A stretch of 64,000 bases of DNA from an uncultured virus (IMG/VR IMGVR_UViG_3300039039_000012). Lineage: Duplodnaviria > Heunggongvirae > Uroviricota > Caudoviricetes > Crassvirales. Numbering within the stretch: position 1 is the stretch's first letter; every line of letters starts with the position of its first letter. The DNA lies in IMG/VR virus record IMGVR_UViG_3300039039_000012; one strand, written 5' to 3'. Position numbers and translations under genes: made by a program. Shown one piece after another: positions 1 through 63,432 of the stretch. The notes beneath the pieces were generated by a model. It saw nothing but the letters and a program-made list of their open reading frames with translations, was not told where the DNA came from and did not search any database.

Positions 1-3000
1 ATTAGCAATACTTTCAAGTTTATTATTAATATTAGATAAAAATAAAGGAAGATTATTAAATCCAGCACTATCTAAATCAAAAAATTCAAGAAGAGCTTTT
101 TCAACTCCTTGTTGTTGAGCATTTTCTTTAAATCTATCAAAAAATACAAAACGATTAAGATTTTTAATAGTACCATTAGAATTTAAATCAATATGTCCAT
201 TGTCATCTAATCCAATACCAAGTTCAGCACAAGTTTTTTCAAAACTATTTCTAATATTAGCTACATAATTATTAAATACTTTATCTTTAAGTTCATTAAG
301 TTCAGTTCGATTAGGAAGATTATCAAGCATTTTCTTCATAATCTGAATAGCAGCTTTATTACTAGCATCAACCATATGTTGAGGAACTTCTTGTTGGCGA
401 TAAAGATAATTATAACTAAATAATTCAGAATTATCAAATACATTATTATCAAATTCTTTAAGAGCTTCATCAGTTAAAACACCATCATTATTCCAAAGTG
501 TCATTCTGTTATGTTGTGCAACTTTAACAGTTTCAACAGTATTAATTTGATGAATACCTCTATTAGTCATTATATTATAAACTTTTTCAAGTTCTGTTCC
601 TTTAATAAGTTTAGGGATAAGAACAAACTCAGCATTCTTTACTTGTCTAGGAACTTCAATACCAACAGTAGTATCATAATATAAATCATAATAGAAATTC
701 TTTTGAATTTGAACTTTATTAGCAAATTTAGTCCAATCAATTTTATCTATTGAAGTATCATCTGTAAGACTTTGAATAAGTCCAGCATATTTATCTAATT
801 CACCAGCAGCAGTAATACGACGAATCCATTCTTCAAGAGTAATATAAGATTGAGCATCATTAGTATTAACACCGCCTTTAAATGGTTCTAGTATTCGTTC
901 TCTATCTTTTTTATCAAGTCCAGCTTTTTTAAGTTGGTCATCAAGTCTATCAATAACAACTTTATCAGAAGCTTTAAAAGTATTATAAATAGTAACACCC
1001 CTAAATTTATCTTGAAGAACTACTTTTTTATGTTTAGTAACACCATTAACAGTATAAGGAACAGTAACAGCATTACCTTTGATAGTTATATCATATAAAT
1101 CAGTAGCTATATCTAAATCATTTTTAGTAAAATCAGTATTACCAAAAGGATTACCACTAGCTTGTACTTCTTTAATACGTTTTAGAATAGCTTGACCATT
1201 CTTATAAAAACTTTGGTCACCACCATACATATCGTACATACTATCTCTAACAAGATAATCATTAACTAGAAATTCAGCTAAAGATTCATTATTAATCCTA
1301 TCATCAATAAATGTACCATATTTATTTTTAAGTTCTTTATAACCATTAGTTATATATTCATTTAACCAATCAGCAACAGCATCTTCAAGAGCAATACGTT
1401 GTTCTGCATTAAGAACTACTTGATTATTAATATAGCTAAGTCCATGTGTAGACCCCCCGTAGAGGATGTCAATAGTCTTACCATACCCAATTAGTTCATT
1501 AAACGCTCCATTACTATTAGGAGTAATTTTACTAACTAAACGTTTAAAACTAAATACTCTACCAGCTAAAACTTTATGTCCATCTTTAGTAGTAAATACA
1601 TTACCTTTTCCATCTTTATGGTATTGATTATAAAAATGTTCAGGTTTATTATTATAAGTATCACTAAATTCAAAATCTCCATTAGTTAAAATAGGATTAC
1701 CATTAGCATTAGTCTTAAACATTACATTAACAGCTTGAGCTATATTAGTAAGTTCTTGAATAACTATATTATAATACTGTTTAAATAATGGATGCTCTCT
1801 ATTTATAATTTTAGAACCATCTTCTAGTTGACTACGTAATCCAGCAAGACTATATCTAGGAGCAGTAATAGTAAAGTTTTTAGGAGCATCACTAGGTATA
1901 GGAAGTAAATAATTAGCAGTAGGAGTTTCAGAATTATTAATATCAGTCATAAATAATCCCATAGCAGTAATTAAATAATCACCGTCACTCATACTACGAT
2001 ATAAATCATTATTGTTATTATCTAATTCGCTAATACCATTAAGAAGAGAAGTTTTAAACATACTACGAGCATATTCGGTAAGTTTAGGAGTTCCATTTCC
2101 AATTCTTCTAAACAATCCATAATTAATTATATTACCATTACTATCTCTATGTTCAAGAAGTAAATTACTATAATCATATTGATGACTAGCAAACTTTTGT
2201 TTAGCATAAGCTTCAACCATAGCGTTTTGCTCTTCAACAGTAGATTTATCATCATTGATTATTTTAGCAATGTTAGTAATAAAACTTCTATTAATAACAT
2301 CAGAACTTAAATTACCTTCAGGATTACGAGAATTAAGTTCAACAGGAATATAAATAATATCTTTAAAGACATCAGCCATTTGATATATAATAGAAGTATC
2401 ACCTCTATTAATAAAACTATCAGGCATTTTAGTTCCTTTATCCTTTTTAAGCGCTTCTACATATTTATTATAGTTTTCAACTGTACGATTAATAACATTG
2501 GCAAAATTAATAAGATTATTAGCCATAGCTACACGACCAATCTTAGCAATAGCTAAATTAAAACTAGCTTGATTAATATCTGGAAATATTTCTTTAAAAG
2601 CATCATATAAATAAAGATTAGCATGAGGAGTATTTTTATATCTATCATATATACGAAACTTTTCACGAGCAGTAGGAACACGATTAGTAATAATATTATT
2701 CTTAACATTATTATAAAAAGTATTTTGTAAAATAGTACGAGAATCAGTATTAGGATTAGTTACACGAGCACGAACATAACTATTACCATTAGAATCAGTT
2801 TGAATATAAGTTTCAATTTTAGATATAATAGGTTTATTAAACACCATCATATACTTATTAGCAAATACTTTATTTTTGCTAAGTAAATCATGTAATTGAA
2901 TTAAACATTCACAATTTGGAATAGTTTCAGATATACGTTTAAGACTAGCTATAAAATTATCTACATTACTAGTATCAGCACTAGCATATAATATTTTAGA

Positions 3001-3933
3001 TAAATAATTAGCATCAGAAAAAGTAACAACTCCTAATTCATTATTAGTATCAAAAGGATAACTTCCATTATCAAGTTGAGAAGCAGCAGTAAGTTTAGGT
3101 AAACTTGCAAGATGATATTTAATAATTTCTTCTACGTGTTTATTAAAATCTTTAACTTCACCAATACTTAAATTCCAAAGTTGAGTCATTAAATCAATAC
3201 CATCATCTATACTATTTTCATCACCTTCAGTAGAAGTTTCATCAAGATAACCGCCTAATTCTTCATAATCAGTAGTTTGATATAATTCATCTCGTTTAAT
3301 AAGTTTAGCTACATTTTTATTATTAAAAAGAGCTTCATTAAATTCAGTATTAGTTAAAGAACGAAGTAATGCACCATAATTAAAATCTTGAGCATTACCA
3401 TATTTACGAAGAAATGCTCCAAGACCATTAATTTTAATAGCAGGATTTGGATTATTAATAAAGCTATTAAGTTCATTATTTCTAGCTTCATTACTTCCAG
3501 CTAATTTCTTAGCACGTTTAAGTCCAGCATTAATAACAGTTTCATTAGTACGTTTTTTAATTTCATTAAAATTTAATGGAGCACCATTATATAGAAAATT
3601 AAAACTAAGTTTATTCATAATATCAGCCATATAAGTAATAGCTGTATCTCTAGCTTTAATTGTACTAAACAAACCACGTTCTTCTTTTTCAGCAACAGAA
3701 GCTATATCATCCATATTACGAAGTTTAATAGCTCTAGCTTCAAGAAGAGCATTATAAGCTTGTCTTCCAGAAGTTTTAACATTAATACCTTTATCAGCTA
3801 CAATCTTCTTAAAGATTGGGTCTTCAACCATAGCTATAAGACTATAATAATCAGCATTATTAGAACCATGTTCTTTAATAATAATGTTATTAAGATTATT
3901 ATATCCTACAAGTTTAATATTTCCACAACTCAT
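1..3933 (-). CDS. Giant virion RNA polymerase-type protein of crAss-like phages, N-terminal 1311 aa (runs off the window start)
   Basis: Not in the ORF track because its stop is outside the window. Translated by hand from ATG at 3933 (MSCGNIKLVGY...); the same frame is open at the points checked, including position 1. It sits downstream of two other large ejected-protein genes, as in Crassvirales. Catalytic DxDxD motif not seen in the window. Confidence 0.7.
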   Translation of the reverse strand, partial: MSCGNIKLVGYNNLNNIIIKEHGSNNADYYSLIAMVEDPIFKKIVADKGINVKTSGRQAYNALLEARAIKLRNMDDIASVAEKEERGLFSTIKARDTAITYMADIMNKLSFNFLYNGAPLNFNEIKKRTNETVINAGLKRAKKLAGSNEARNNELNSFINNPNPAIKINGLGAFLRKYGNAQDFNYGALLRSLTNTEFNEALFNNKNVAKLIKRDELYQTTDYEELGGYLDETSTEGDENSIDDGIDLMTQLWNLSIGEVKDFNKHVEEIIKYHLASLPKLTAASQLDNGSYPFDTNNELGVVTFSDANYLSKILYASADTSNVDNFIASLKRISETIPNCECLIQLHDLLSKNKVFANKYMMVFNKPIISKIETYIQTDSNGNSYVRARVTNPNTDSRTILQNTFYNNVKNNIITNRVPTAREKFRIYDRYKNTPHANLYLYDAFKEIFPDINQASFNLAIAKIGRVAMANNLINFANVINRTVENYNKYVEALKKDKGTKMPDSFINRGDTSIIYQMADVFKDIIYIPVELNSRNPEGNLSSDVINRSFITNIAKIINDDKSTVEEQNAMVEAYAKQKFASHQYDYSNLLLEHRDSNGNIINYGLFRRIGNGTPKLTEYARSMFKTSLLNGISELDNNNNDLYRSMSDGDYLITAMGLFMTDINNSETPTANYLLPIPSDAPKNFTITAPRYSLAGLRSQLEDGSKIINREHPLFKQYYNIVIQELTNIAQAVNVMFKTNANGNPILTNGDFEFSDTYNNKPEHFYNQYHKDGKGNVFTTKDGHKVLAGRVFSFKRLVSKITPNSNGAFNELIGYGKTIDILYGGSTHGLSYINNQVVLNAEQRIALEDAVADWLNEYITNGYKELKNKYGTFIDDRINNESLAEFLVNDYLVRDSMYDMYGGDQSFYKNGQAILKRIKEVQASGNPFGNTDFTKNDLDIATDLYDITIKGNAVTVPYTVNGVTKHKKVVLQDKFRGVTIYNTFKASDKVVIDRLDDQLKKAGLDKKDRERILEPFKGGVNTNDAQSYITLEEWIRRITAAGELDKYAGLIQSLTDDTSIDKIDWTKFANKVQIQKNFYYDLYYDTTVGIEVPRQVKNAEFVLIPKLIKGTELEKVYNIMTNRGIHQINTVETVKVAQHNRMTLWNNDGVLTDEALKEFDNNVFDNSELFSYNYLYRQQEVPQHMVDASNKAAIQIMKKMLDNLPNRTELNELKDKVFNNYVANIRNSFEKTCAELGIGLDDNGHIDLNSNGTIKNLNRFVFFDRFKENAQQQGVEKALLEFFDLDSAGFNNLPLFLSNINNKLESIAN

Positions 3934-3970
3934 AAGTTTATATTTAAGTTTAAATTCATTAATAGTAATA

Positions 3971-4063: not shown

Positions 4064-7000
4064 CTACATACAGCTAAAACTGATGCGCCCTGTGTCAAGC
4101 AAAGTGGCAAATTCGGGCTGTTGGTCTATTGGTAAACAGCTAGTTAATTCAGCCATATTTGACACCACATCATCATCAACACTACTAAACATATCAAGTC
4201 CATCATTAAGATTATCATTATTATAATTATAATCTTGACTGTTATCTTCATTAGGATTTTCAATTTGTTCTGTACTAACAGTTTCTTCTTCAAATTGAAA
4301 AGTTCCTTGAATAGCCTCTTGATTACTTTCTTTAGGCATTTTTTTAATAGCTTTATAAGCATCTCTAGCAGCAGCTAATAAACTATCTTCATTAATCTTA
4401 ATACCTAACATATCAGCAATAACTTCAAGAAGTCTACTAAATAAAGTCTTACGTTTATTAACTTTTCTATTATCATATTTAATTTCATTAAGTGCAGTCA
4501 TAAGAGCATTACTAGTAATACTTTCAACTAGAAATTCTTCAAGAGCTTCACTTGTATTAAAGTTCTCAAACAGATAAGGTTTAAGTCTTTCTTTAGTAGA
4601 ATCATCTTGAGTATCAAGCCAAGCTTTAAATTTATCATAAATAGGTTTAACTAAAGTAAGAGCTTGTTCAGTATTATATTTAGTATAAAGTTGTCTATGT
4701 AAACTTTCATGAAGTATAATATTAACAACTCGATAAACTCTTTGACCAGCAATAGCAGAACTATTAAGTTCAATAGTATCTGTATCACGATGATAAACAG
4801 CATTAACTTTATTACCATTATTATCAGTAATACTATCTACAACTTGAATATTTTTAGGCAATATACCAATCTTTTGAAGAGCATTAATATAATCAATAGC
4901 AGTTTGGTCATTAGCAAAATACTTTTTAAGTCCACGAGTTAAATTCTTAGCAGTTATAGCAGATTCAAAAGCATTAAAATTAATAGCATTAAGAGTATCA
5001 TCTAACATGAACTCTGATAGCTGTTCAGGTATTGCTCCATCCTCCACGGGGGGTCTACCCTCAAGTTCATAAGTAATATCGAGTTTAGAATGAATATCTA
5101 TTTGCCAATTACCAGCAGTTTCATCTGTATTAGTATTAGCTAATTTAGTTCTAACTAAGCCATTACTAATAATAAAATCTTGATAACTATTATAATTATA
5201 AGTTTTACCATCAATATTTATAATAGTTTTACCATTTTCACGATAAATATATTTATTAGTTTTATTATTAGTTTTTGTACTATCATTAATAAAATCTTTA
5301 CTAATAGCAAATTGAGCATAGTTAAACATTTCATCAATAACAGGACGAAGAGCATTATCTAATTCATCAATAGTACTAGCATTAATACCATAACTTTTAC
5401 CTATTTTAAAAGCACTATTAACAACATAAGGAGAATTAATAATAATATTACGTTTATAATTACCAGCATCAGAATTAATAGTAAAAGCATAATCCTTACC
5501 ATTAAAATGTGCACCTTTAACATAAAAGCCTATATTAGTAGGATTAATACTAATTTGAAGTCCAGTATTTCTATCTCCGTTAATAAGTTTATTATTTCCA
5601 AATATATCTCCAAGACTTTGTTTAAGTTCACCAAAACTTATTTTTCCACTAATATAATCTCTACAAAGATTATTAACTTCATTCTTAATAGAATTAGTAA
5701 TACGTTGAGCATCACCTTTAAGTAGATTACTATTTAATGGAACTTGTTTACAAAAAGCATATAGAGAAGTACCATCACTACTTGGAATACTAATAACAGG
5801 CATACCATTAGTAGTAAGATTTTCAATAATAGTAGGTTTACTTTCTCCATTAAGATATACTTGACCTTGTACAACTACACCAAGTTTATTAACATCTTCA
5901 TTATAATTAACTACTGTTTCTTGTACATCATTCCATTCACCATTAGCATCATCAATAGTATTAAGAACTCCATATTTAACATTAACAGCTTTAACTTTAC
6001 CTTTAAAATCACCTTTAACTATTGTAATAGCTTGGTCATAACTATTAAGAAGATTATTAAACCAACGATTAATACTAGCTTCATGACTATTTTCATAAGG
6101 CTGATTAAATATGTATTTAGTAAGATTAACAAGATGCCCAGCTAAATCAAAACTTGCAACAGGAGTAGTAAAGTTTTTAACAATATCAGGATATTTAACT
6201 TCAAATTCTTTAAATAAAGTATCAAGTTCTTTATTTGTAACTTCTTCTTTAACTGCAAGTTCATATAAATGACCAATAAATTCTTCATCAAATCTATCAC
6301 CATCAAGAATACTAATTAAAGCATCTTTAAGCGGAGAAACAACTTGACCATTTTCAGCATGAATATTATATTTCCAACCTTGATTAACCATATCATAATT
6401 ACCAAACTTATCAATATTTGGAACTCCTATATAACCAATAATTGTATCATTAGCAAATATATCAATACGTTTAAGTTTAATATTATATACAGCTTCTAAA
6501 TAATCACCTTGTTTAATACTAGTAAATGCTTTAACATTTTCATTCTCTACTATATATTTAAGATTAACATTATTAGTATGCTCAACTTGAAGTCTTTCAA
6601 GACGTTCTTTAGCAATACCATCTATATATTGAACAAATTGTTTAGCATTAAGTTTCTTAATAGTTGATTCATCAGTAGCACGATATTTACCTTGATTATT
6701 AGTGCTGGCGTAAAGATAGTTTTTTATTTGATTAAACAAGTAATTTTTAATAATTTTATTACCCGTAACACTATCTATATATTCAACTAATTGACCAATA
6801 CTAAGATAGACTTTGCCATTAACAATTTTACCTCTAGTATTACCTTCACTATCAACACTATTAGCAAAATCATCCATAATAGCTTCTATATTGCGTTCAT
6901 TACCTGTAACAGTAGCATAAGTAGCATTAAGTAATAAACGTCTAGTACTATCATCTTGAACAGAACTATATAAACTACCGCCTGTAAGACCGTCAATAAT

Positions 7001-9937
7001 ATTATTAACTATGTCAGTAGCTTCCGTTTGTTCAAATCCAGCTTGATTAAGTTTATCAATAAAAGACTGTCTAGCATTAAGTAAATCACTACTAGTAGAT
7101 TCATGTCCTAAAGAATCTTCTAAATCAGCAATACTTTCATAAACTAAATCAGTACCTATTTGACCGCGTTCAAATTCATCATCTGGAAGAGTATTATTAA
7201 CTTCAGATTTAGGAGTACTAATAGGTTCTTGAGAAATTGGTTGTTCAGTTTGAGATTGAGGTTGTTCAGTATTAGTAGGCTCACTAGGAACCGCTTCGCT
7301 TCGCTCCGCTATACTCCCCGTGGAGGATGGAGATGAGTTAGTATCATCTACATCAGTTTCATTAACTTCATTAACATCAGGATTAACAGGGGCAACTTCT
7401 TCCTCTTTAGGAGCATTATTAACATCGTTTTCAATCTCAGCAATCTCAGCTAATTGCTCTATTGTATTTTTAAGATGTTCATTACCTTTAGAACTTAAAT
7501 CAAGTGCAGCATAAGCATCTCTAATAACTTTATCTATATTAGGTTTATTACCATTATTAGCATCTTTAATAACAGAATTGACATATTCTTTACCATATTG
7601 TTTATAAGCATTACGTAAATCGTCCATAGCTTTATTAACAATCTTTTTACGACTATTATCAAAGAAGTTATTAAGATAAGTTATACGAGATTTAATATTA
7701 TCATCAGATAAATTAAGTTGATTTTTATTAACCTCAACATTAATCTCAGCATTAACAACTTCTGCTAAATCTTTAAATACTTCATTATATTGTTTTTGAA
7801 GTTGAATAGCTGATTGAATATCATTTTTATTTTCAATATCAATAGGAGTATAAAGTTTATTAATAGCATCTAGACGTTCATTTAATTGAGCAATACGTTC
7901 TTGCTTAACAGAATTATTAATTGCTGCATTATCTTGAATAGTTTTAACATCTCTTTGAATACTATTAATAATATGCTGATAAATACCATTCTTATCAGAA
8001 TTAATATCAACATCTTCAATATGATTATTTGTAATATCTTGATTTAAAACATTATTAGCCCAATTAAGAAGATTATTATAATTTTCTTGACGATTACGAG
8101 CATGAACCATTTGGGTAGCTATAATACGACCAACTTCAAATCCGCCACCAAGTCTATTAACTTTATTTAAAGTAGTATTATATTCATTTTTAAGATTATT
8201 AATTTCAGTTTTAAATCTATTAATAAGTTCACTACTTTCTTGTTGTTGTAATCCAAGTTTATTAGTAATACTATCATTAAATTCTTTACTATTAATAGAA
8301 CTTTCAAGAAGTCCTAAATTACCAGCGTTCATAGAATTAATAATAATATTATCCATATATTCTTTTTCAGCTATACTACGAAATTCTTCTTCAGTACCAG
8401 CAATAATATCTGGATTAACTTGATTACCATTTTCATCAGTAATAGTTATAAATGGATTTTTACCATTAGCAATACTATTAAGTCTTTCTTGATATGCTTG
8501 AAAAGTAGCAGTACGACCAAGAATTTCGTTTTCTCTTTGTTTTTCAGCAGAAGTCCAATCTTTATCAAGACGTTTATTAATAAACTCTCCAGCTTTATTC
8601 ATAACACTACTAAAAGTAACACCACCAAGAGCACCCCAAAATGCTTGCTCCCATAACATTGGGTCTTGAAGATAATCTTTAATAGTTTGTTGAGGAATAT
8701 CTTTATCAAATACTTTTTTACCATTATATAAACCATCTTGGCTAGCTATATAATTAATAGCTTCTTCAACCCCTTCTGTCCATTCAGCTCTAACACCATG
8801 AAGAATATCATTACCCACATCTTTTAATGTACTAGTAATAGCTTGTTTAGTAGTTTTATTACTTAAAGCATTAGTAATTGCAGCAGCATCATCAATATTA
8901 CTATTAAATGCAGTATTTAAATTTCTAAGTCTAGAACTAGTTGTATTACCACTTAAAGCATTTTTCCATAAGTTCTTTAAACTATAAACTTGCCATACGT
9001 CAAAAAGAACATTAGCCCAATCTTTAGCAAAAGTAATATCAGCACTATTTTTAGCAATATCTTTAGCTACTTCTTCATCAGACATATCTTTATATTTAGG
9101 ATTATTATTATAAAACTCTTCTCTTTGTTTATCATTCATATTAGCAAGTTGAGTTTTAGAATAATCTTCAATATCATTATAAGTTTGTCTAGCTTCTTGA
9201 TAATTTTCAAGATAACGAGAAGGAACTCCAATAGCAGTAGCTTCTGCTATTCTATTAGTAATTGCTCTACTCTTTTGTGTCATATTAATAGCATTAGCCA
9301 TTTTATTGGCTAATTTATTAAACTTTATACCTTTACCTAATAAAGAAATACCTTTAGCAAGACCGGTACTAGGAACCATAAGAGTTAAAGAACTAGCTAT
9401 ACTAGGAGCATTACTAGCCCACCAAGCAAAATCTCCAATATCAAATGCAGCATTAGGATTTTCTCGATATATAGCTAATCTTTCATTAATAGATTCTTTT
9501 AAAAATTCAAGTCCAGAACTTATTTCAGATTGATAATCATTAGGGGTATCACTAATCATATTATAAAATGCGTCTGCTAAATCAGCAAAACCAATAGCTG
9601 TTCCAACAGTAATTTCATTACCAATTTGTCCAATCATTCTTAATCCTTGTTCCCAATTACTTTGATTAACAGCACGTTCTTTATCAAGTTTTTCAGGGTC
9701 ATCAACAGGATTAACATAAACATCATAAGGAGCATATTTATCTATATCATATTGGTTAAGATTATATGATTGCCCAGCAATGCGACTAAATAAATGACCA
9801 CGACCCTGGTCACTAATAGAAGTGCCAGGGTTGTAATCAACTAAAGTAGGAGGCTGTATAGCCCCCTTTTTAGTTTTAGGATTATATTCAGGATTAGGTG
9901 TTTTGTTACCACCTTGTAGAAACTTTAATACATCCAT
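4064..9937 (-). CDS. Large virion/ejected protein (1957 aa), RNAP-associated, with C-terminal zincin-like domain
   Basis: ILHESLH (HExxH) followed by EEFLVE near the C terminus; glycine-rich hydrophobic N-terminal segments; synteny with crAss RNAP-associated large genes. Confidence 0.65.
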   Translation of the reverse strand: MDVLKFLQGGNKTPNPEYNPKTKKGAIQPPTLVDYNPGTSISDQGRGHLFSRIAGQSYNLNQYDIDKYAPYDVYVNPVDDPEKLDKERAVNQSNWEQGLRMIGQIGNEITVGTAIGFADLADAFYNMISDTPNDYQSEISSGLEFLKESINERLAIYRENPNAAFDIGDFAWWASNAPSIASSLTLMVPSTGLAKGISLLGKGIKFNKLANKMANAINMTQKSRAITNRIAEATAIGVPSRYLENYQEARQTYNDIEDYSKTQLANMNDKQREEFYNNNPKYKDMSDEEVAKDIAKNSADITFAKDWANVLFDVWQVYSLKNLWKNALSGNTTSSRLRNLNTAFNSNIDDAAAITNALSNKTTKQAITSTLKDVGNDILHGVRAEWTEGVEEAINYIASQDGLYNGKKVFDKDIPQQTIKDYLQDPMLWEQAFWGALGGVTFSSVMNKAGEFINKRLDKDWTSAEKQRENEILGRTATFQAYQERLNSIANGKNPFITITDENGNQVNPDIIAGTEEEFRSIAEKEYMDNIIINSMNAGNLGLLESSINSKEFNDSITNKLGLQQQESSELINRFKTEINNLKNEYNTTLNKVNRLGGGFEVGRIIATQMVHARNRQENYNNLLNWANNVLNQDITNNHIEDVDINSDKNGIYQHIINSIQRDVKTIQDNAAINNSVKQERIAQLNERLDAINKLYTPIDIENKNDIQSAIQLQKQYNEVFKDLAEVVNAEINVEVNKNQLNLSDDNIKSRITYLNNFFDNSRKKIVNKAMDDLRNAYKQYGKEYVNSVIKDANNGNKPNIDKVIRDAYAALDLSSKGNEHLKNTIEQLAEIAEIENDVNNAPKEEEVAPVNPDVNEVNETDVDDTNSSPSSTGSIAERSEAVPSEPTNTEQPQSQTEQPISQEPISTPKSEVNNTLPDDEFERGQIGTDLVYESIADLEDSLGHESTSSDLLNARQSFIDKLNQAGFEQTEATDIVNNIIDGLTGGSLYSSVQDDSTRRLLLNATYATVTGNERNIEAIMDDFANSVDSEGNTRGKIVNGKVYLSIGQLVEYIDSVTGNKIIKNYLFNQIKNYLYASTNNQGKYRATDESTIKKLNAKQFVQYIDGIAKERLERLQVEHTNNVNLKYIVENENVKAFTSIKQGDYLEAVYNIKLKRIDIFANDTIIGYIGVPNIDKFGNYDMVNQGWKYNIHAENGQVVSPLKDALISILDGDRFDEEFIGHLYELAVKEEVTNKELDTLFKEFEVKYPDIVKNFTTPVASFDLAGHLVNLTKYIFNQPYENSHEASINRWFNNLLNSYDQAITIVKGDFKGKVKAVNVKYGVLNTIDDANGEWNDVQETVVNYNEDVNKLGVVVQGQVYLNGESKPTIIENLTTNGMPVISIPSSDGTSLYAFCKQVPLNSNLLKGDAQRITNSIKNEVNNLCRDYISGKISFGELKQSLGDIFGNNKLINGDRNTGLQISINPTNIGFYVKGAHFNGKDYAFTINSDAGNYKRNIIINSPYVVNSAFKIGKSYGINASTIDELDNALRPVIDEMFNYAQFAISKDFINDSTKTNNKTNKYIYRENGKTIINIDGKTYNYNSYQDFIISNGLVRTKLANTNTDETAGNWQIDIHSKLDITYELEGRPPVEDGAIPEQLSEFMLDDTLNAINFNAFESAITAKNLTRGLKKYFANDQTAIDYINALQKIGILPKNIQVVDSITDNNGNKVNAVYHRDTDTIELNSSAIAGQRVYRVVNIILHESLHRQLYTKYNTEQALTLVKPIYDKFKAWLDTQDDSTKERLKPYLFENFNTSEALEEFLVESITSNALMTALNEIKYDNRKVNKRKTLFSRLLEVIADMLGIKINEDSLLAAARDAYKAIKKMPKESNQEAIQGTFQFEEETVSTEQIENPNEDNSQDYNYNNDNLNDGLDMFSSVDDDVVSNMAELTSCLPIDQQPEFATLLDTGRISFSCM

Positions 9938-12511: not shown

Positions 12512-14746
12512 TTATTTTCCTCCAAGTTTTCTACGTTTACGAATTACAAATTCATCATAATCAACTCCAGCATCTCTCATTATTCTATCATCTACATTAG
12601 GAGCAGATGCCCTCATAGCACCAATAGTATTATTTAAAGCTTTACGATTTTCATATCTACTAATCATATCTTGAATACCAGCATTAATTCCAGTAAATAA
12701 ATTATTTACATTAGTAAGTTTAGCTTCTCTAATACCATTATCAAATGCTGTTTTTCTATCTATATATTGATTGTATTGTTGAGCATTAAATTGACGTACA
12801 CTTTGTTGATTACGTCTATCTTGATTAATAAGATTAGTTTCAATATTTTCTTTTTCACCATAAAGTTGATTAACAGCTTGACCAGCAGCATTGCGAACTC
12901 TTTGTTTACGAGCTAAACCTACACGACTACTAGCAGTATTAGAGTCAATATCTCGATAAGCTTCAAATTTATCTTCTCTAATTCTATCAAGTTGAGGATT
13001 AATATTATATTTAGTTTTAAGTTTATTAGCACTAATAAGAGTAGGTCTGCCAGGACCTCTCATTTTATTAATAGCTCGTTTACTTGCAAAATAACTACCT
13101 AATCCTCCAGCAATATTACTACCAAGACCTATCCAATCAGCAGTAGTAATGTTTTTAAATTTACCTTGACCTTTACCATCAGATTGACTAGATTGTTTAA
13201 CAGGAACACTAGTAGAAACAGGTAAAGTAGTAGGAATACTAGCTTCTATAGTAGGAAGATTACGATTATAAGTAGCAGTAGGAGGAGTTTTAGTAGAACT
13301 AGATTGAACTGATTGACTTGACTTATTCCTTCCTCTACGGGGGGTATTCCCTTTAGATTTAGTAGTAGGTAAATTTGGAATATTAGTATTATCAACAGTT
13401 ATATTTTTATTATTACCATGACTCCAACCAGCTTTAACAAGACCACTAGTAATAGCAGGTCCATCATTAAATAAAGGAAGTTCACGTTCTGCATAATATT
13501 GAGGACGACGATTTCCATTATCTACTTTAGAATTTTTAGTAGGATTATCATTAGAAGTATTAGATTTGTTTTTATGCCATCTTCCATTTCTAAATGTATA
13601 TTCAGAACCAGAAACAGTTTCACCTCTAGCAGATCTATCAATAGGATATGGACTTGTTCTAGTAATAGTTCTATCAGTTATCGGAATATAATATCCATTA
13701 TCTTCATCATATTCCCAAGTTCTACCATGACGATTAATACGTTTTCCACCATCTCTAAGTTTGTCGTGCCGACCCCCCGTAGAGGATGGAGAATGAAGTA
13801 ATCCATTCTTAACATTACCACTAATACTAATAATCAATCCATTACTACCTTTCTTTCTAAGTTCAGGATATTTATTATAGACTTTAGCTTTAACATCATT
13901 TCTACCATGTAATCCAGCTAATCTTAAAGCATCAATAGCATCGGCTTTAGTAGGAATAGGATAACTTCTATGTCCTCCAGCAAAATCTTTTTTAGCTACA
14001 CTAGGATAAGGTTTCTTTTTAGAACCATAATCTTTATCTCTACTTAAACCACCCATAGCTTTTATAGTACCGTCATCATTAATTTTATTTCTATCTTTAA
14101 AATCTTCTTGAGCTTTAAATACTTTATTTGGATTAGCTCCACCCATAACTAATTTAGCAGGACTAATTCCATTAATAATTGGTTGAGCAGAATAAACTTT
14201 AAGTTCATCACCATTAGTTTCTACAATTTCACCATCTTCTACTTCAATACCAGTTTTATCACTAGGACCAATATCAATACCACCTTGACTATGTTTTCTT
14301 CCATTCATATAAAAGAAATTATTACCAAGAGGATGAGCAATACCACCATCAACTACATTAGGAACTTTTCCACCAGTAGCATATTGTTTTTGTGGGATAT
14401 TTCTTCCATTAGTTCTAGGAGTTTGAATAATATTAAATGGAAAAGTTGGTCCAAGGTCTTCATCATTAGGAAAAGATTCTTTATTAAAATTCTTAACATA
14501 ATCAACAAGTCTACCGGCAGTATTATCCATTAATTGTTCTCTATCATTTCTAGGTATTAAATTATTAATACCATTATAAAGAAATTCATTACCAAGTCTT
14601 ATTAATCCGGTAGTTTTAGCTACTTTATCATAAACTCCACCAAGTGGAGGAATACCACTTTTAATAAATCTGCCATCTTTAGTAACTGTACCTTTAAATT
14701 CACTAGGCATGTCACTTATATGAATAGTTTTATTTTTTCTAGGCAT
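12512..14746 (-). CDS. Virion cargo protein (744 aa)
   Basis: GRKHSQGGIDI...EVEDGE segment typical of crAss cargo proteins, disordered middle, hydrophobic Gly-rich helix, Q/R-rich C terminus. Confidence 0.55.
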   Translation of the reverse strand: MPRKNKTIHISDMPSEFKGTVTKDGRFIKSGIPPLGGVYDKVAKTTGLIRLGNEFLYNGINNLIPRNDREQLMDNTAGRLVDYVKNFNKESFPNDEDLGPTFPFNIIQTPRTNGRNIPQKQYATGGKVPNVVDGGIAHPLGNNFFYMNGRKHSQGGIDIGPSDKTGIEVEDGEIVETNGDELKVYSAQPIINGISPAKLVMGGANPNKVFKAQEDFKDRNKINDDGTIKAMGGLSRDKDYGSKKKPYPSVAKKDFAGGHRSYPIPTKADAIDALRLAGLHGRNDVKAKVYNKYPELRKKGSNGLIISISGNVKNGLLHSPSSTGGRHDKLRDGGKRINRHGRTWEYDEDNGYYIPITDRTITRTSPYPIDRSARGETVSGSEYTFRNGRWHKNKSNTSNDNPTKNSKVDNGNRRPQYYAERELPLFNDGPAITSGLVKAGWSHGNNKNITVDNTNIPNLPTTKSKGNTPRRGRNKSSQSVQSSSTKTPPTATYNRNLPTIEASIPTTLPVSTSVPVKQSSQSDGKGQGKFKNITTADWIGLGSNIAGGLGSYFASKRAINKMRGPGRPTLISANKLKTKYNINPQLDRIREDKFEAYRDIDSNTASSRVGLARKQRVRNAAGQAVNQLYGEKENIETNLINQDRRNQQSVRQFNAQQYNQYIDRKTAFDNGIREAKLTNVNNLFTGINAGIQDMISRYENRKALNNTIGAMRASAPNVDDRIMRDAGVDYDEFVIRKRRKLGGK

Positions 14747-20172: not shown

Positions 20173-21069
20173 TTATTTAGGAAAAGTAAAGTTATAAAAG
20201 AACTCATTCCAACCACTATCATCATCACTTTGTTCATCTAATAAAATACTAGTCTTAATATCTTTTTTCATACTTTCCCACAAATAGAAAGGATTAGTAC
20301 CATATTGACTAGCAGAAAGATTAAATACAGGATGTTTATATCCCCTCATAAGCATACGAGCCATACAATAATAAGCAAGACCTTGAATTAATTTACCATT
20401 AGCAGGTATCACAGGAACTTCACAATGATAATTATCACTATATTGAGTTTCAATATCTTTATAAACAATAGTTATACAAGTATCATTAAAATTAAGTTCG
20501 ATAGTATTACCATCTACTAGAACATAATTATGACTTGACTTATCATATCCTCCACGGGGGATATAACAATGAGAATGAACTTCATGCTGACATCTTGGAC
20601 ATTCAGTATTGTTATGAAGAGAATAAACTACAGGATTACATCCTACTTTGCCAGTATCAATAACTTCTCTAGTTCTAGAACCGTTTGGGCAACAATCAGC
20701 AGGCATACCAAGATAATCTTTATTAGTAGCACGTTCCGGACTTTCGTCCTCCACTCCACCCCCCGTAGAGGATGGAATTGAATTATTATCACTACAATTA
20801 TATCTACTATTATCAGCTCTAGGTACTTCACAACCGTTACTATCATAAACTTTAAGACCGTCATCAATAAGACAACATTTACTTTTAGCTATCTTATTAG
20901 TGACGGTTAATTTAATTTTCTTATCTACTTTACGAAGAACTTTAAGTTCATTCATAGCATCAACACACCAAGCAGCAACTCTAGGAATCCAATCACTATT
21001 ACTAGGATTGAAATCGTTGTCTATTTTTGCTATTATGTGCTCCACGTTTATACTTTTGTTGTTCGACAT
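20173..21069 (-). CDS. Tail tubular/ring protein (P22 gp4-like)
   Basis: Likely start MSNNKS at 21069; IIAKIDNDF...WCVDAM N terminus; immediately upstream of the muzzle gene. Confidence 0.55.
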   Translation of the reverse strand: MSNNKSINVEHIIAKIDNDFNPSNSDWIPRVAAWCVDAMNELKVLRKVDKKIKLTVTNKIAKSKCCLIDDGLKVYDSNGCEVPRADNSRYNCSDNNSIPSSTGGGVEDESPERATNKDYLGMPADCCPNGSRTREVIDTGKVGCNPVVYSLHNNTECPRCQHEVHSHCYIPRGGYDKSSHNYVLVDGNTIELNFNDTCITIVYKDIETQYSDNYHCEVPVIPANGKLIQGLAYYCMARMLMRGYKHPVFNLSASQYGTNPFYLWESMKKDIKTSILLDEQSDDDSGWNEFFYNFTFPK

Positions 21070-41795: not shown

Positions 41796-41858
41796 ATATT
41801 CTTTAAGTTTACTAAATTCTTAGTGTAGACTCCCCGTAGAGGATGGAATACATTCATG

Positions 41859-44860: not shown

Positions 44861-46018
44861 TCAAATGTTTTTAAGTTTGTTTTTATAAGCACTAACAAGA
44901 GCACTATTAGCAGGATTCTTAAACCATACAACAGCTTCCTTAACATTAGCACCGATAAATTCACCATCAGGAGTAGTAATATTCTGATTATGAATTGCTC
45001 TGATAAATTCTCCACGAGAAACAAGAACCTCAATTAAAGACTTAATAGTAATATCTTTATCATTACAAAGTTTATTAAACTTAACAGGTTCGTTTGTACT
45101 AAATTTATCAAGATGCGATTGCTTATCAACCATATCCATAGACATGCCATTAGGAATATTAATATTGTTAGCAACACAGTATTGAATAAATACAGCATCA
45201 AACAAATCACTATTCGTGAGAAGTTTAACGTAGTTACTCTTAGCAGCATTAATTTCCTGACGATGTTTAGCAAGACGCTCAGCTTCTCTTTGGTCATCTT
45301 TAAAATAGAATCTAATAGATGGATCAGAATTAATAAGAGCAATATCTTTAGCTACATCTTTATACAATAAACAATGGCGATAAATTAGATAATCATCAAG
45401 AACAACAGGATAACCATATTTATATTTTTCACTTTCAAGAAGATTAAGTTTAGTAATCTTAGACTCAAGAGCTTCTCGAAGTTCTTTAACTCCTTTACGG
45501 TCACTATTTAAATAGGCAGTTTCAATAGCTTCTTCTTCAGCTCTAAAACGAAGATAATCTCGTTTACGATTCCAAAAGAAAGAAATATCAAAAGTCTTAC
45601 CTAATTCATCAACAGCAACACTAATGTTATTAAGATAAGCCTTAACCCTTGAAATAAAGTTTTCGTTATTAGGAGCAAGACCAATCAAAGCAGGAAAATA
45701 AGATTCAATCTCGCCTTTATTAGAAGAAAGAGTACGAGAACTACGAACACAACTACCAATTTTATCCATTCGTTTAGGTAATGTTTTATCATTAGCTCTA
45801 CGATATAATGAATAATTAGTAACTAAATTAATAGTAATAGTTCGTTTTTCAGTATAAGGTTCATCAAGACTTTCATCTCTAAATCCTACTGTATTGTTAG
45901 GTCTATTATCATCTCCATCCTCTACGGGGGGTATAACCTGTTTAACTGTATTTTCATTAGAAGCAGCAGGAGCATTTTCTCCTGCTTTATTAGCTTCGCC
46001 TACTTTATTAAAATCCAT
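44861..46018 (-). CDS. Conserved crAss head-module protein (385 aa)
   Basis: Directly downstream of the MCP; IGANVKEAVVWF C-terminal motif. Confidence 0.55.
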   Translation of the reverse strand: MDFNKVGEANKAGENAPAASNENTVKQVIPPVEDGDDNRPNNTVGFRDESLDEPYTEKRTITINLVTNYSLYRRANDKTLPKRMDKIGSCVRSSRTLSSNKGEIESYFPALIGLAPNNENFISRVKAYLNNISVAVDELGKTFDISFFWNRKRDYLRFRAEEEAIETAYLNSDRKGVKELREALESKITKLNLLESEKYKYGYPVVLDDYLIYRHCLLYKDVAKDIALINSDPSIRFYFKDDQREAERLAKHRQEINAAKSNYVKLLTNSDLFDAVFIQYCVANNINIPNGMSMDMVDKQSHLDKFSTNEPVKFNKLCNDKDITIKSLIEVLVSRGEFIRAIHNQNITTPDGEFIGANVKEAVVWFKNPANSALVSAYKNKLKNI

Positions 46019-47535: not shown

Positions 47536-48852
47536 TTAATAACCAAAACGTTCATCTTTTAGAACGTCATTTTTACTATCAGGTTTAGTTATTTTAATAG
47601 CTCCTCTTGTAGATTTACGTTGACTTGCAGTAAGTTTCAACTTTTTAGCTTCTTTATCAGAAACAGCCATTTCTATCAAACTATCATAACCTTTACCTGT
47701 ATATTTAAGCCAAGCTTTAAGCAGTTCTTCATCGCGTCTTTCAGCAGGAGATAACTTCATTAAATCATTTTCATAACGAGAAAGTCCTTTATCATCAACT
47801 TGATAAACATAATTAAAGAAATCTTCTGGAGTTGTAGAAATTTGTTTTCCATTACGTTCAATAATAACAGTTTCAGGAATACGATAACCGGCAATTTGTC
47901 GTTTATCAATACATTCTTTAACACCATTCCAAAATTCTACAAGTTGTTTTTCTTCTTCTGCTTTAACTCGTAAAGCCTCTTTAGCATTAGCTTCACGTAC
48001 ATCGTTATCAGCTTTCTGAAGAGCTTCAAGTTCTTCTTTAGCAACATTGAAAAGTTCATTACTATCTTTCAAATATTGAATATACTTATCAACATTACCA
48101 CGACGATTAAATTCCTTAAACGCTTCACGAACAATAGCTTCTTGTTGGCTCACATTATTTTCATCGACTTCAATACCGCTTCTATCTCTAAGTTCACCAA
48201 AGCCTTCAAATGAATTACCATTTGCAACATAATAATTAAGAAAATCACTAACAACAGGATAATCTTCAAATAATTTATTAACTCCAGCTTTAGCAAATTC
48301 ATCACGTTTTAAATCAAGAACGGATTGAACATAACTTGCAACTCCTTGAGGAGTATTATCAAAAGTAACTGGTTTGCCATCTTCTGAAGTAACAGAAATA
48401 CCTACAAGTTCTTGAATTGATTTAACATCAATTTTATCTTCATTACTAGTATCTTCTACTTCAAATTCTTTAAGATAAGCAGCAACTTCATTTTTAGCTT
48501 TAAAGATATTACCTTTATCGTCAATAAGATTACCGTCTTTATCAACAGTATATTTATTATCTCCATCTTCAATAATAGTACCTTCTTCTAAATCATGCTC
48601 ATTAGCAGTAGCATCATCAGGATTTTTAGTATCCTTGGTTTGACCCCCCGTAGAGGATGAAGTTTGTTTATCTTTATTAGCATCACCATTATTGCCATCT
48701 CCATTACCATTTCCGGTAATATCATCAACAGCATTACCATTAGCATCTAACTGTCCTGTTTTACCTGTATCAAGGTCAGTAACGTCGTCAGTAGGTTTTA
48801 CATCAACATTAGATGTTTCACCGTTAAAACCAAAACTATCAAAACTAGGCAT
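47536..48852 (-). CDS. Acidic scaffold-like head assembly protein (438 aa)
   Basis: D/E-rich disordered N terminus; lies between portal and MCP. Confidence 0.6.
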   Translation of the reverse strand: MPSFDSFGFNGETSNVDVKPTDDVTDLDTGKTGQLDANGNAVDDITGNGNGDGNNGDANKDKQTSSSTGGQTKDTKNPDDATANEHDLEEGTIIEDGDNKYTVDKDGNLIDDKGNIFKAKNEVAAYLKEFEVEDTSNEDKIDVKSIQELVGISVTSEDGKPVTFDNTPQGVASYVQSVLDLKRDEFAKAGVNKLFEDYPVVSDFLNYYVANGNSFEGFGELRDRSGIEVDENNVSQQEAIVREAFKEFNRRGNVDKYIQYLKDSNELFNVAKEELEALQKADNDVREANAKEALRVKAEEEKQLVEFWNGVKECIDKRQIAGYRIPETVIIERNGKQISTTPEDFFNYVYQVDDKGLSRYENDLMKLSPAERRDEELLKAWLKYTGKGYDSLIEMAVSDKEAKKLKLTASQRKSTRGAIKITKPDSKNDVLKDERFGY

Positions 48853-53887: not shown

Positions 53888-54310
53888 TTATTTAACAAGT
53901 AAACAAACAACAAAAGCGATAGCGCATACAGCACCACCGCCTACCAAATATCTATTATTACGTTTAATACGTTCAATAGATTTATTTAAATTATCATTAA
54001 CTTTATTAGTATTATCAAGATTATATTGAAGAATTTTAATCTCATTATTGATAGTATTATATTTAAGTTTTTGAAGACTAATAATACTATCTTGTTCTTC
54101 AATTATATCTTTATAAAGTTTACTTTTAATAATTTTAGCATTAGCAACTTTAATCATACTAATAGGAACAGAAACAACTGTGTCAGTAGTATTGACTCCC
54201 CGTGGAGGATGCACTACATTATTAATCTCACTCTGACACCAACTTCTTGAATAACTCCCAAGAAGCACTATCACTAAGACTAATAACTTTATCATCAATA
54301 TCTTTTTCAT
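53888..54310 (-). CDS. Membrane/coiled-coil protein, possible spanin component
   Basis: Signal-like N terminus, coiled coil, C-terminal TM; next to the endolysin. Confidence 0.45.
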   Translation of the reverse strand: MKKILMIKLLVLVIVLLGSYSRSWCQSEINNVVHPPRGVNTTDTVVSVPISMIKVANAKIIKSKLYKDIIEEQDSIISLQKLKYNTINNEIKILQYNLDNTNKVNDNLNKSIERIKRNNRYLVGGGAVCAIAFVVCLLVK

Positions 54311-56516: not shown

Positions 56517-56612
56517 ATTAATATTATTAAGTTCAACACTAGCTTGGGTACGCTTCGGCACTGCGTGCCTACGCTATACTCCCCGTAGAGGATGGAGTGA
56601 ATCAGCATTAGC

Positions 56613-58546: not shown

Positions 58547-59062
58547 AACTTAATTGTTTTCAGCAAATGTAATAGTTTAAATGAATCTACCAAGAGAAAA
58601 ACTAATTTTAACATTTGTGTCATAGAGGATTATATGATTATAAATATGCAAGTCATACTCCCCGTGGAGGATGGAGATGAGTTAGACTTAATCATATTAG
58701 TATTAATGATATTAATAGAGATAATAATAATGATAGTATTGATTAACTTGATGTGATTGATACTGATTATATCCATCCTCCACGGGGAGTTTAGCGGAGG
58801 ACGAAAGTCCGGAGCGGGTCACAGCGAATCTATATAATATATCTATATATAATATATCTTTATAGTAATTATAATACATTGATTATCAATAAGTTATAAT
58901 ACATATTATGTATCATGCTGAATACCTAATTCTCCATCAGTATGCAAATTAAGTGGCAAAAATGACTACCTTTGTGCACGAAAGTTGTTCCATCTATGGA
59001 ATACATTTCGCTAATTTCCTAGAGTAATATATTTTTATGTTAAACTTAATAATATTATTGTT

Positions 59063-59818
59063 ATGACTTTTAAAGAAGATTTTAAACCTAGTCGAGTTTA
59101 TAATAAACTTGTTATTGATGCTATTAATAAAGATATAGCTAATGATAGAAGTATTATTATACCTAATACTTTTGATATTGATGTTAAAAATAATAATAAA
59201 AAATATCTATGTGGTACTGGACGTATGGAATGTTTTGATACAGGTAAAATTATTAAAAGATATTATTCTAATGTTGGTATTAATGCTTGGAGAGAAATAG
59301 TTGAATTAAGAAGTATAATTCTTCATGAACTTTTTTATTTTATTAATTATACTATTTGTTTTAATTCTAATGTTGTTAAAATTAGTAAGGATTTATTTGA
59401 TGCTGTTTGTAGAAATGGAATTAGAAGTGGATGTAATAAACGAGATTTTGCTAATGCTATTGTTACATTAGAAAAACTTAATATTATTCGTAGAACAGAT
59501 AAACGTAGTATGTTTGAAGTTAATCCTAGAGTTATATTTAAAGGTGATATTAATAAATTTCATGAAATTATTACTAAAGGTAAACTTGATGATTCTAAAA
59601 TAAAACTTGATAATAATGTTAATTATATAGATAGAATAGGATTAGTTAAAGATGATAATTGTATTATAATTAAAAATAAACAAGTATATAAAAGTGAACT
59701 TGATTATTTATATGATAATAATGAGAATAATGTAGATAAAGCAAATAATGAAAATAATGAAACTGAAATAATTGAAGCAGAAGAAGTTGATACTGGTAAA
59801 ATTGATTGGGATTGGTAA
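59063..59818 (+). CDS. RepL-like replication initiator / winged-helix protein (251 aa)
   Basis: AIVTLEKLNIIRR...FEVNPRVIFKG resembles the RepL wHTH; first gene after the strand switch; TACCTTTG (-7-like) at 58967. Confidence 0.6.
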   Translation: MTFKEDFKPSRVYNKLVIDAINKDIANDRSIIIPNTFDIDVKNNNKKYLCGTGRMECFDTGKIIKRYYSNVGINAWREIVELRSIILHELFYFINYTICFNSNVVKISKDLFDAVCRNGIRSGCNKRDFANAIVTLEKLNIIRRTDKRSMFEVNPRVIFKGDINKFHEIITKGKLDDSKIKLDNNVNYIDRIGLVKDDNCIIIKNKQVYKSELDYLYDNNENNVDKANNENNETEIIEAEEVDTGKIDWDW

Positions 59819-62570: not shown

Positions 62571-62634
62571 TCGTGTTGTTCAGTAGAGTAATATTGCTAC
62601 TGATAATAATATTAATCTTAAACTTATAAGTGTT

Positions 62635-63252
62635 ATGGTAAATTTTGATAATGTTACTAGTAATGTTCAATCTAAGCCTAGAAAGAAAACTATGGCTGAA
62701 AGTTTAGAAGAAGCTAAACAAGAGGGTAAACTTGTTGTTCCTGAAGAAGATACACAAGTTAATGCTGTTGTTAGTAGTGAAACTGTTCAACCTAAGAATA
62801 AAGCTAGGAAGAAGAAACAAAGTAAAGTTCGTAAACAGGAAGAACAAACTACTGTTGTTAGTCAATCTAATGAAGATAATGATTTTAAAGATGCTAAGAC
62901 TGATAAGCGTGGTGTTCCTGTTGGAATTAATGTTCCTCAGCATATTCTTGATGTAGTTTGTATTGTTAAGTTTAATGCTGCTTTTAGACGTCATACTTCT
63001 CTTAATATTCTTCATACTTTAGAAGACGATGGTAGGATTAATAACTCTAAAGGTGCTTATGTTGATTTTCTATGGAATAAGTTTAGAGTTACTGCTGATG
63101 GTGGTCTTCGTAGAGAATATAGATATATAGAAGATTTATTTATTGATGCTCTTGTTAAAGCTCATGCTGATGTAGCTACTGATAATCAAAAGGTTATTAA
63201 TAGTATGATTGATACAGAAGCTGAACTTAATAAAGCTAAATCTCCTGATTAA
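62635..63252 (+). CDS. Hypothetical protein (205 aa)
   Basis: Preceded by a host-type promoter; charged disordered N terminus. Confidence 0.65.
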   Translation: MVNFDNVTSNVQSKPRKKTMAESLEEAKQEGKLVVPEEDTQVNAVVSSETVQPKNKARKKKQSKVRKQEEQTTVVSQSNEDNDFKDAKTDKRGVPVGINVPQHILDVVCIVKFNAAFRRHTSLNILHTLEDDGRINNSKGAYVDFLWNKFRVTADGGLRREYRYIEDLFIDALVKAHADVATDNQKVINSMIDTEAELNKAKSPD

Positions 63253-63432
63253 CTAAGTTTGTAGTATAGACTCCCCGTGGAGGATGATAGTGTTGTTGAA
63301 TTAGTTAAAGCTAGTCTTCATTTGCTATTCATTTTTATCCATTTTGTTACAGGGTTTTATATTTGTTTGTTTAGAGTTAAATACATTGATGATAATCATC
63401 CTCTACTCGGAGTTTATTTTAAATATATTATT

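Follow-up and report, generated by a model that had tools for sequence, protein, structure and literature searches.

A dispersed, strand-aware DNA word with lineage-specific spellings in crAss-like phages of the Intestiviridae, and its possible role in phage DNA replication

The stretch considered here – the window, 64,000 nucleotides of the uncultured virus record IMGVR_UViG_3300039039_000012 – derives from a strain of the prototypical crAssphage (p-crAss), approximately 93% identical to Carjivirus communis BK010471 (Crassvirales, Intestiviridae, Crudevirinae), and carries a GC-rich word of 17 nucleotides, ACYCCCCGTRGAGGATG, scattered within and between its genes. Among known viruses of the human gut crAssphage is the most abundant, yet next to nothing is known of how it replicates. 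The window starts with the giant RNA-polymerase genes, continues with the tail and head genes and reaches a divergent region that holds a RepL-like gene and the first early genes; the corresponding BK010471 coordinate is that of the window plus approximately 37,637. Megablast of positions 30000–50000 returned eight near-full-length records, BK010471 among them, with at least 80% query cover and approximately 92–94% identity. Context was provided by BK010471, five IMG/VR strains and genomes of other genera: the seven p-crAss strains are 92–95% identical overall, and other genera are approximately 69% identical to BK010471 at the nucleotide level where alignable. The compared genomes are kin, and P values across genomes are therefore not independent; in the spacing tests the direction of effect is identical in all.

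Copies of the word in the window

With up to two mismatches allowed, the window holds 20 matches to the word (17 exact, one with one mismatch and two with two), 13 on the plus strand and seven on the minus strand. In the list below, ORF denotes an open reading frame, and sense or antisense is relative to the gene.

1452..1468, plus: exact copy in an RNA-polymerase-subunit gene (ORF 1–3933, minus), antisense, DILYGGS; syntenic with BK010471 39089
5038..5054, minus: exact copy in ORF 4064–9937 (minus), sense, RPPVEDG; in seven of seven strains
7313..7329, plus: exact copy, long form, in ORF 4064–9937 (minus), antisense, PSSTGS
13329..13345, minus: copy with one mismatch in ORF 12512–14746 (minus), sense, TPRRGR
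13772..13788, plus: exact copy in ORF 12512–14746 (minus), antisense, PSSTGG; matches a five-residue gap in the orthologues of other genera
20546..20562, minus: copy with two mismatches in ORF 20173–21117 (minus), sense, IPRGGY; SPVED in orthologues
20758..20774, plus: exact copy, long form, in ORF 20173–21117 (minus), antisense, PSSTGG; position kept in four other genomes
26595..26611, plus: exact copy, intergenic
31382..31398, plus: exact copy in ORF 30568–32253 (minus), antisense, HPLRGV; missing in two of seven strains (a diverged patch, 9 nt shorter)
31647..31663, minus: exact copy in ORF 30568–32253 (minus), sense, LLPVEDD
35625..35641, plus: exact copy in ORF 32340–36245 (BACON-domain protein, minus), antisense, ASSTGS
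41829..41845, plus: exact copy, intergenic
45916..45932, minus: exact copy in ORF 44861–46018 (minus), sense, IPPVEDG; a gap in the orthologues of other genera
48643..48659, plus: exact copy in ORF 47536–48852 (minus), antisense, SSSTGG
54195..54211, plus: exact copy in ORF 53888–54310 (minus), antisense, HPPRGV; position kept in four other genomes
56578..56594, plus: exact copy, long form, intergenic
58657..58673, plus, and 58774..58790, minus: inverted (+,-) pair, both copies exact, separated by an AT-rich spacer of 100 nt and approximately 270 nt upstream of the RepL-like gene
63270..63286, plus, exact, and 63397..63413, minus, degenerate (two mismatches): second (+,-) pair

These are the copies, at the same coordinates, that a first-pass annotation of the letters had reported. 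It had also called the genome very AT-rich, as is the case (25–33% GC per 4-kb bin), and dinucleotide-preserving shuffles of the window (n=100) yielded no match at all (mean 0.00, maximum 0). Its figure of about 20 copies genome-wide holds for the window but not as a genome total: the full genome of BK010471, the closest annotated relative, has 33 copies at up to three mismatches, at positions shared with the window.

Thirteen of the 20 copies lie in long ORFs and are read in five frames, with translations as first described: SSTG[GS] (7313, 13772, 20758, 35625 and 48643), HP[LP]RGV (31382 and 54195), ILYGGS (1452), [PL]PVED (5038, 31647 and 45916) and [TI]PR[RG]G (13329 and 20546). The remaining seven are intergenic; the copy at 63397 falls only within a mechanical GTG ORF and is intergenic in the annotated relative. 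None of 127 in-gene copies from eight genomes uses the sixth frame, because the word's TAG or TAA would there be read as a stop. Comparison with a codon-aware null model – synonymous-codon shuffles within ORFs (n=300), which preserve each ORF's protein and codon usage – gave a mean of 0.63 matches and a maximum of three against the 13 coding copies observed.

The word is embedded in a longer consensus, roughly aGGKTAK-ACYCCCCGTRGAGGATG-GAr, and seven copies per genome are long forms that carry on the 5′ side a GC-rich module of CGCTN pentamers (module A), often with a small hairpin. Just beyond the purine run, 10–40 nt on the 3′ side, purines fall to 0.36–0.44 of the bases on the strand of the word (205 copies, eight genomes), and the purine/pyrimidine asymmetry thus reaches past the conserved core.

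Conservation and dialects

Evidence that the word is maintained as DNA came firstly from the seven p-crAss strains. At sites defined in BK010471 only, 44 of 2310 cells at the 15 fixed positions of the word differ (1.9%), as against 440 of 6160 (7.1%) and 495 of 6132 (8.1%) in the flanks (flank range 7.1–10%): among strains the word is approximately four-fold more conserved than its surroundings, so that it does not diverge freely in close relatives, and nearly all of its sites are syntenic. Variation is concentrated at the R position, which is hypervariable (31 of 154 cells, 20%), and to a lesser extent at the Y position (8 of 154, 5%), with transitions only at both. R is position 10 of the word and flips between A and G at two to three times the flank rate next to neighbours that are nearly fixed; in a hairpin pair of BK010471 (22898/22925) the arms have exchanged R states between strains.

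For approximately one third of the 31 BK010471 sites, other genera have a copy at the orthologous position with its orientation unchanged; these include sites in the genes for DNA polymerase, SNF2 ATPase, primase and ligase, in gp50 (twice) and in gp78. At several of these places what is kept is the DNA and not the reading frame: the site in the primase gene gp21 reads SILYGG, NPLRGV, YPLQG, TFYGG or HPLYGG depending on the genus, and that in gp50 reads TPRGG or SPVED. Since one orthologous site is translated in differing frames, protein constraint cannot account for the word – a view already taken in the first-pass annotation, and one with which the codon-aware null model agrees.

The word extends well beyond p-crAss. 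Exact 17-mers are present in many IMG/VR crAss contigs; five genomes from different Crudevirinae genera have 31–35 core copies each, and five other contigs 17–25 copies at up to two mismatches. De novo k-mer counts revealed a related top word in every Intestiviridae genome examined (12 of 12), each with its own spelling, and searches with the genome's own pattern recovered 13–35 copies in ten of the 12. The genomes cr110_1 (28 copies) and cr3_1 (30 copies) share the core of the window (12-mer core, at most one mismatch). Other dialects are as follows.

cr271_1: AGCTCCCCCGTAGAAG
cr8_1: AGCCSCCCCGTAAAAGGTATGTA, 26 copies
crAss002: TTCCCCC[GA]TA[AG]AGGAG, 26 copies
Rudgehvirus: CCCTGTARAGG, 23 copies
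Whopevirus: CTGGCCCGTAAAGG, 13–18 copies

The skeleton common to the dialects comprises a C-run, G or A, TA and a purine run, with lineage-specific flanks of up to approximately 28 nt; all of them have the (G/A)TA centre and the 5′ C-run in common, and the purine run is also conserved. No word was found at up to one mismatch in Steigviridae (crAss001 and IAS virus) or in one Suoliviridae genome. The crAss001 genome (NC_049977.1) has an enriched 9-mer of its own, CTCCAGAAG, with 29 copies (18 plus, 11 minus), ten of whose 13 sense copies fall in one frame; a peptide effect could explain this, as could a different signal.

The signal is private to the phage family Intestiviridae. A scan of 596 Gb of cellular genomes, a set outside which the true hosts (Bacteroides and Prevotella) lie, showed no enrichment of the exact 17-mer: 53 of the 133 loci with a match are crAss contigs, and the other 80 are single matches, mostly in GC-rich DNA. 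As for the 20 relatives of G001, their kinship is with a bin that merely contains a crAss contig, and as such they provide no test of the true host. The records that hold the 53 crAss-like loci include bins and assemblies whose titles name Mycoplasma, Clostridia, Chitinophaga silvisoli and Atlantibacter subterraneus, probably through mis-binning or contamination.

A central issue is how some 25–30 dispersed sites come to share a spelling. The orthologous site in the SNF2 gene gp17 is written in the genome's own dialect in eight of eight genomes, and that in the primase gene gp21 in seven of eight. Concerted change across a genome's copies implies a trans-acting reader with which they co-evolve; such change would be hard to achieve by gene conversion, because flanking homology is missing, whereas a reader that drifts would draw its sites after it. 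Copies can also be created by substitution, as is evident from the Whopevirus ligase site, where the word is present and the length is equal to that of word-free orthologues. As to the identity of the reader, crAss002 infects B. xylanisolvens and Rudgehvirus B. cellulosilyticus, and the difference in dialect between phages of one host genus makes a phage-encoded reader more likely than one encoded by the host.

Placement, spacing and inverted pairs

Across ten genomes we placed 272 copies, of which 95 lie in the approximately 12% of DNA that is non-coding and 177 (65%) in genes. The in-gene copies are arranged without a tie to the direction of transcription (76 sense, 101 antisense; p=0.07) and are most often read in the two mildest frames (45 copies PPVE-type, 43 copies SSTGG-type); in BK010471 the capsid, portal and terminase genes have none. 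A promoter or operator, which the first-pass annotation had also discounted, can be rejected on the grounds that most copies are in genes and occur in both orientations. According to one study, early transcripts of a crAss-like phage have no common motif and its middle promoters are sigma70-like (10.1101/2020.03.07.982082).

The same placement bears on the idea that the element acts in RNA, as a complementary-strand hairpin (pyrimidine run, UAC, G-run) for transcript stability or processing. Wherever the word varies, among copies or between dialects, it does so by transitions, and these preserve pairing (G-C, A-U or G-U) in such a hairpin; the hairpins of module A show compensatory changes, and the close intergenic inverted pairs would form long hairpins. 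The transitions are, however, equally expected of a DNA site, the in-gene copies lie in both orientations and no Rfam family matches; we consider an RNA-level element very unlikely. In the window Rfam gave a weak miRNA-precursor match that is due to the inverted pair (31.8 bits, where the gathering score is 171). Contigs from RNA libraries cross in-gene copies without deletion, and may be DNA; in the public data, 23 runs stored as assembled contigs, the loose ends at copies are assembly breaks at the repeat.

The most striking property of the copies is the regularity of their spacing. The coefficient of variation (CV) of gaps between site clusters is 0.43–0.62, as compared to 0.81–0.84 under a hard-core null model, with P<0.05 in nine of ten genomes; for single strands it is 0.31–0.64, with P<0.05 in 16 of 20 strand sets. 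In the window the 13 plus-strand copies stand 4.2–7.0 kb apart across the late region (CV 0.30 against a null of 0.90), an evenness matched by none of 5000 random draws, and the seven minus-strand copies have a CV of 0.34 (P=0.017). Family-wide, spacing is approximately 5–8 kb per strand, or one copy per 3–4 kb overall, and orientation switches between neighbouring copies in 184 of 272 cases. The half-site CCCCGT is not depleted outside the word under a second-order Markov null. Under the same kind of model CCGTR outside the word occurs at approximately 50–70% of expectation (27 against 54 in BK010471, 52 against 94 in G003 and 87 against 123 in G005), a shortfall that possibly reflects avoidance of spurious sites or an artefact of the model.

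The word is thus a DNA-level signal, kept by selection in and between genes, on both strands and at regular intervals on each; conservation among strains, changes of frame, dialects and even spacing together uphold the cis-acting site system overlaid on coding sequence that was first proposed. We are confident of the more general reading: a selected, strand-aware DNA word, private to a family, with a co-evolving reader.

The first-pass annotation had offered a tiny selfish repeat as the alternative, and several features invite it, whether as a small insertion element resembling Rickettsia palindromic elements (RPE), MITEs or GC clusters, or as biased-recombination drive of the kind proposed for uptake sequences. 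Lineage-specific copies fall at gaps of 5–8 residues in orthologues, linkers and spacers are preferred, as are the mildest frames, module A resembles an insertion beside some copies, and the site at 31382 is present or absent among strains. But the filled and empty alleles of this site differ by 9 nt and a diverged patch, with no target duplication, and the Whopevirus ligase site arose with no change in length; ancient sites are kept across subfamilies, and neither the even per-strand spacing nor the near-constant copy number is expected of random insertion. With no clean insertion difference and with copies regularly spaced, a selfish or drive-maintained repeat is disfavoured, and we regard it as highly unlikely.

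Even spacing in both orientations is also what might be asked of a Chi-like word, one that stops degradation by a host or phage helicase–nuclease from a DNA end and is therefore needed regularly on both strands. Chi sites are words of 5–8 bases, set by the host's RecBCD or AddAB and enriched in the host genome; like Chi, the crAss word is orientation-dependent and recurs every few kb, and the phage encodes a Gam-like nuclease inhibitor, RecT and a RecD/Dda-like helicase. Unlike Chi, it has 12–17 conserved bases, far above those lengths, it differs in dialect among phages of one host genus, and its exact 17-mer shows no enrichment across the scanned cellular genomes, a set that lacks the true hosts. 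Breakpoints of identity between strains, an indirect measure, are not enriched at copies (173 site–strain pairs against 9868 background positions, p=0.84), and AGCGG, which lies inside module A, is not enriched genome-wide (30 observed, 31.5 expected). A Chi-like role is decidedly improbable. A recombination hotspot was rejected from the identity shifts themselves, with a mean of 0.053 at copies and 0.066 elsewhere (p=0.84).

The inverted pairs provide a further clue. That at 58657/58774 sits where gene direction and GC skew switch, and is followed by a gene for a RepL-like protein; modules of type A accompany several copies.

59063..59818, plus: RepL-like gene, orthologous to KP06_gp88; its product matches gp43, the Pfam-RepL protein, by BLASTP at E 4e-8
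7291..7312, plus: module A, (CGCTN)n pentamer run adjoining copy 7313 at its 5′ side; the module also stands beside crAss002 copies
20732..20757, plus: module A with a GGAC-TTTC-GTCC hairpin, 5′ of copy 20758
56546..56577, plus: module A with a GGCAC-TGC-GTGCC hairpin, 5′ of copy 56578
58791..58826, minus: module A with a GGAC-GAAA-GTCC hairpin, 5′ of the minus copy 58774; other strains there have AGC-GAA-GCT (compensatory)

Pfam recognizes no family in the window's RepL-like protein itself. In BK010471 a second (+,-) pair lies upstream of gp43, the Pfam-RepL gene, and strains G008 and G012 contain at the gp50/gp51 junction an insertion of approximately 970 bp (L203:13317-14200 in G008; the place corresponds to approximately 21030–21110 of the window) that brings a third RepL-like gene together with its own inverted (+,-) pair, a module A and a small GC hairpin. 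The protein encoded by this cassette has 185 aa and is 33% identical to gp43 (E 1e-18). All three RepL-like genes of p-crAss therefore have a (+,-) pair upstream: the distance from the midpoint of the pair to the estimated gene start is approximately 345 nt for gp88 and 593 nt for gp43, and in the cassette approximately 250 nt separate the start codon from the nearer copy. Of four other Crudevirinae genomes, three (G005, G006 and G007) likewise have the gp88-type pair. In the window, G009 and G010 the gp50/gp51 junction is 72 nt shorter than in BK010471.

Module A adjoins copies in crAss002 too, a member of a different subfamily, and its hairpins show compensatory changes between strains (GAGTGC-TAC-GCACTC versus GAGTAC-TTC-GTACTC; AGC-GAA-GCT versus GAC-GAAA-GTC). 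An invertible segment between paired copies was considered and rejected: in every strain compared the spacers run colinear, none of them inverted.

The association with repL genes lends itself to a reading in which the copies are duplex-DNA binding sites for a phage protein, RepL-like or other, that organises, segregates, condenses or packages the genome, in the manner perhaps of dispersed parS, Noc-binding (NBS) or matS sites or the homologous-region (hr) elements of baculoviruses. Pairs upstream of all three p-crAss repL-like genes, a cassette that brings its own pair, even spacing, dialects and variation that is almost solely transitional are all compatible with such sites. Yet the word is not palindromic, this reading does not say why copies should be evenly spaced on each strand separately or why orientation switches should be in excess, and RepL-like genes went undetected in four word-bearing genomes; we judge it unlikely. 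The last finding has a more specific consequence, namely that RepL is insufficient as the reader of all copies, and in that role it was rejected.

Nor do the pairs beside repL genes find an explanation if the copies are targets at which a phage nickase opens a single strand, leaving virion DNA nicked regularly on both strands. Localised single-strand interruptions are known from T5, phiKMV-like and tf phages, which share with the crAss word a long, non-palindromic, strand-specific consensus that the phage encodes; in those phages nicks are few and mostly on one strand, and the crAss word is known here from sequence alone. The word's even placement per strand, the phage-encoded reader implied by the dialects and the presence of an annotated PD-(D/E)XK nuclease among the phage nucleases speak for nicking, which we nonetheless hold to be improbable.

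Two further observations concern the window alone. The gene for the BACON-domain protein has, at 33376–35140, five to six tandem repeats of 318–321 nt that are 60–83% identical and represent ordinary repeated domains. An Rfam match to Vault at 55266–55359 (minus strand) scores 23.8 bits against a gathering score of 34 (E 0.92) and is most likely due to chance.

A possible start signal for DNA synthesis

What kind of machine reads the word? The word resembles a hitherto undescribed signal that a DNA-handling machine would read, and the likeliest such machine is that of the phage's own replication. The explanation that we favour, at a probability of roughly 35–40%, is that it marks strand-specific start points of phage DNA synthesis and is read by the phage replication machinery. 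Single copies would be recognition or loading sites for primase on the template strand: with GTA as the central trinucleotide and the C-run next in the template, synthesis would yield a G-rich primer (ACGGGG-type) able to stay annealed in a genome of 29% GC. The (+,-) pairs around AT-rich spacers beside repL genes could be origins that fire outwards, and the optional GC hairpin module may serve as an accessory single-strand landmark. A signal at regular intervals on each strand fits initiation on the lagging or complementary strand, and outward firing from an AT-rich spacer by an initiator gene would match what an origin needs.

The candidate primase is gp21, assigned by PHROG 12622 (E 1.8e-167), which has invariant Cys/His and Glu...DxD residues and whose fold matches, all of them weak (E 0.004–0.03, from a poor model), are solely to the primases of T4, T7 and DnaG. 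Primases of the T7/T4 type recognise a template trinucleotide followed by bases that are copied into the primer, at sites that are very frequent, and T7/T4/DnaG-type enzymes read only 3–5 bases. Single-strand initiation (ssi) signals, such as ssiA and ssiB of RSF1010 and that of phage G4, are long and specific, are paired on opposite strands at an origin, are hairpin-structured and number one or two per replicon. The crAss word resembles both in being strand-specific and, under our explanation, would be read on the template strand, with GTA as the trinucleotide and the adjacent bases copied; it differs in that approximately 30 long words tile both strands of a 97-kb genome and that the long forms folded are not exceptional in stability. 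A stronger version of the replicative explanation – that in crAssphage and all Intestiviridae the primase or replisome starts only at a long word of approximately 12–17 nt, giving a punctuation code for replication every 5–8 kb per strand, even through coding sequence, with dialects by genus that co-evolve with the reader and outward-facing pairs as portable repL-linked origins – is possible but doubtful.

Several findings weigh against start points for DNA synthesis. The mechanistic steps, be they priming, nicking or binding, are inferred. Base skew is unchanged across copies (205 copies, p=0.82 and 0.93), four of the 20 strand sets are not evenly spaced (possibly because dialect patterns are incomplete), and single-stranded folds of four long forms, on both strands, show no extra stability (z from -1.6 to +0.65 versus shuffles). 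RepL-like genes turned up by tblastn in Crudevirinae only, and the search found none in four other genomes that bear the word (crAss002, Rudgehvirus, cr8_1 and cr271_1); in G003 the gp88-type pair is not beside the repL gene. The structural model of gp21 is poor (mean pLDDT 54.7) and has no fold match at E 0.001, and the primer model leaves the conserved purine run and the length of 17–28 nt unexplained. Among the readers suggested by the first-pass annotation, RepL-like protein and primase have gained indirect support, whereas we found none for IHF-like protein, virion RNA polymerase or terminase.

The closest parallels for an over-represented word of this kind are the uptake signal sequences (USS) of Pasteurellaceae and the DNA uptake sequences (DUS) of Neisseriaceae, which belong to competent bacteria, where an uptake receptor recognises them. 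The likeness is extensive: a word on both strands, in several frames at tolerant places, with inverted intergenic pairs, dialects at orthologous positions and even spacing. The crAss word differs in being private to a phage family, in its 12–17 conserved bases (28 with flanks) and in having no uptake process, and no cellular genome scanned is enriched for the exact 17-mer. The triplex repeats BoxC, PIT and TM_ECO are likewise short, GC-rich and near or in genes, and comprise a 9-nt C-block and two 9-nt G-blocks, CCCTCNCCC N3-6 GGGNGAGGG N3 GGGNGAGGG (PMC4666352). Measured against that description they were rejected, in that the crAss word combines a single C-run with a mixed purine run that is not its complement, and has no complementary 9-nt blocks. 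The accessible portions of PMC7886860 and PMC8375218 mention no such word, and a search for the exact word in both orientations, with subscription journals and supplements outside its reach, found neither the word itself nor any published motif of this kind in crAss-like phages; in the literature searched, the earlier statement that no function has been described holds.

A signal that is family-wide, tiles both strands and overrides codon choice in essential genes would provide a first handle on the DNA metabolism of crAssphage, be it origins, priming, nicking or genome organisation, and would account for odd conserved linker peptides such as PPVED and SSTGG. The word would also serve as a sequence marker, and its dialects as a means of typing, for Intestiviridae, and would constitute a viral addition to the small class of genome-wide words that DNA-handling machines read: Chi, USS/DUS and the FtsK-orienting polar sequences (KOPS).

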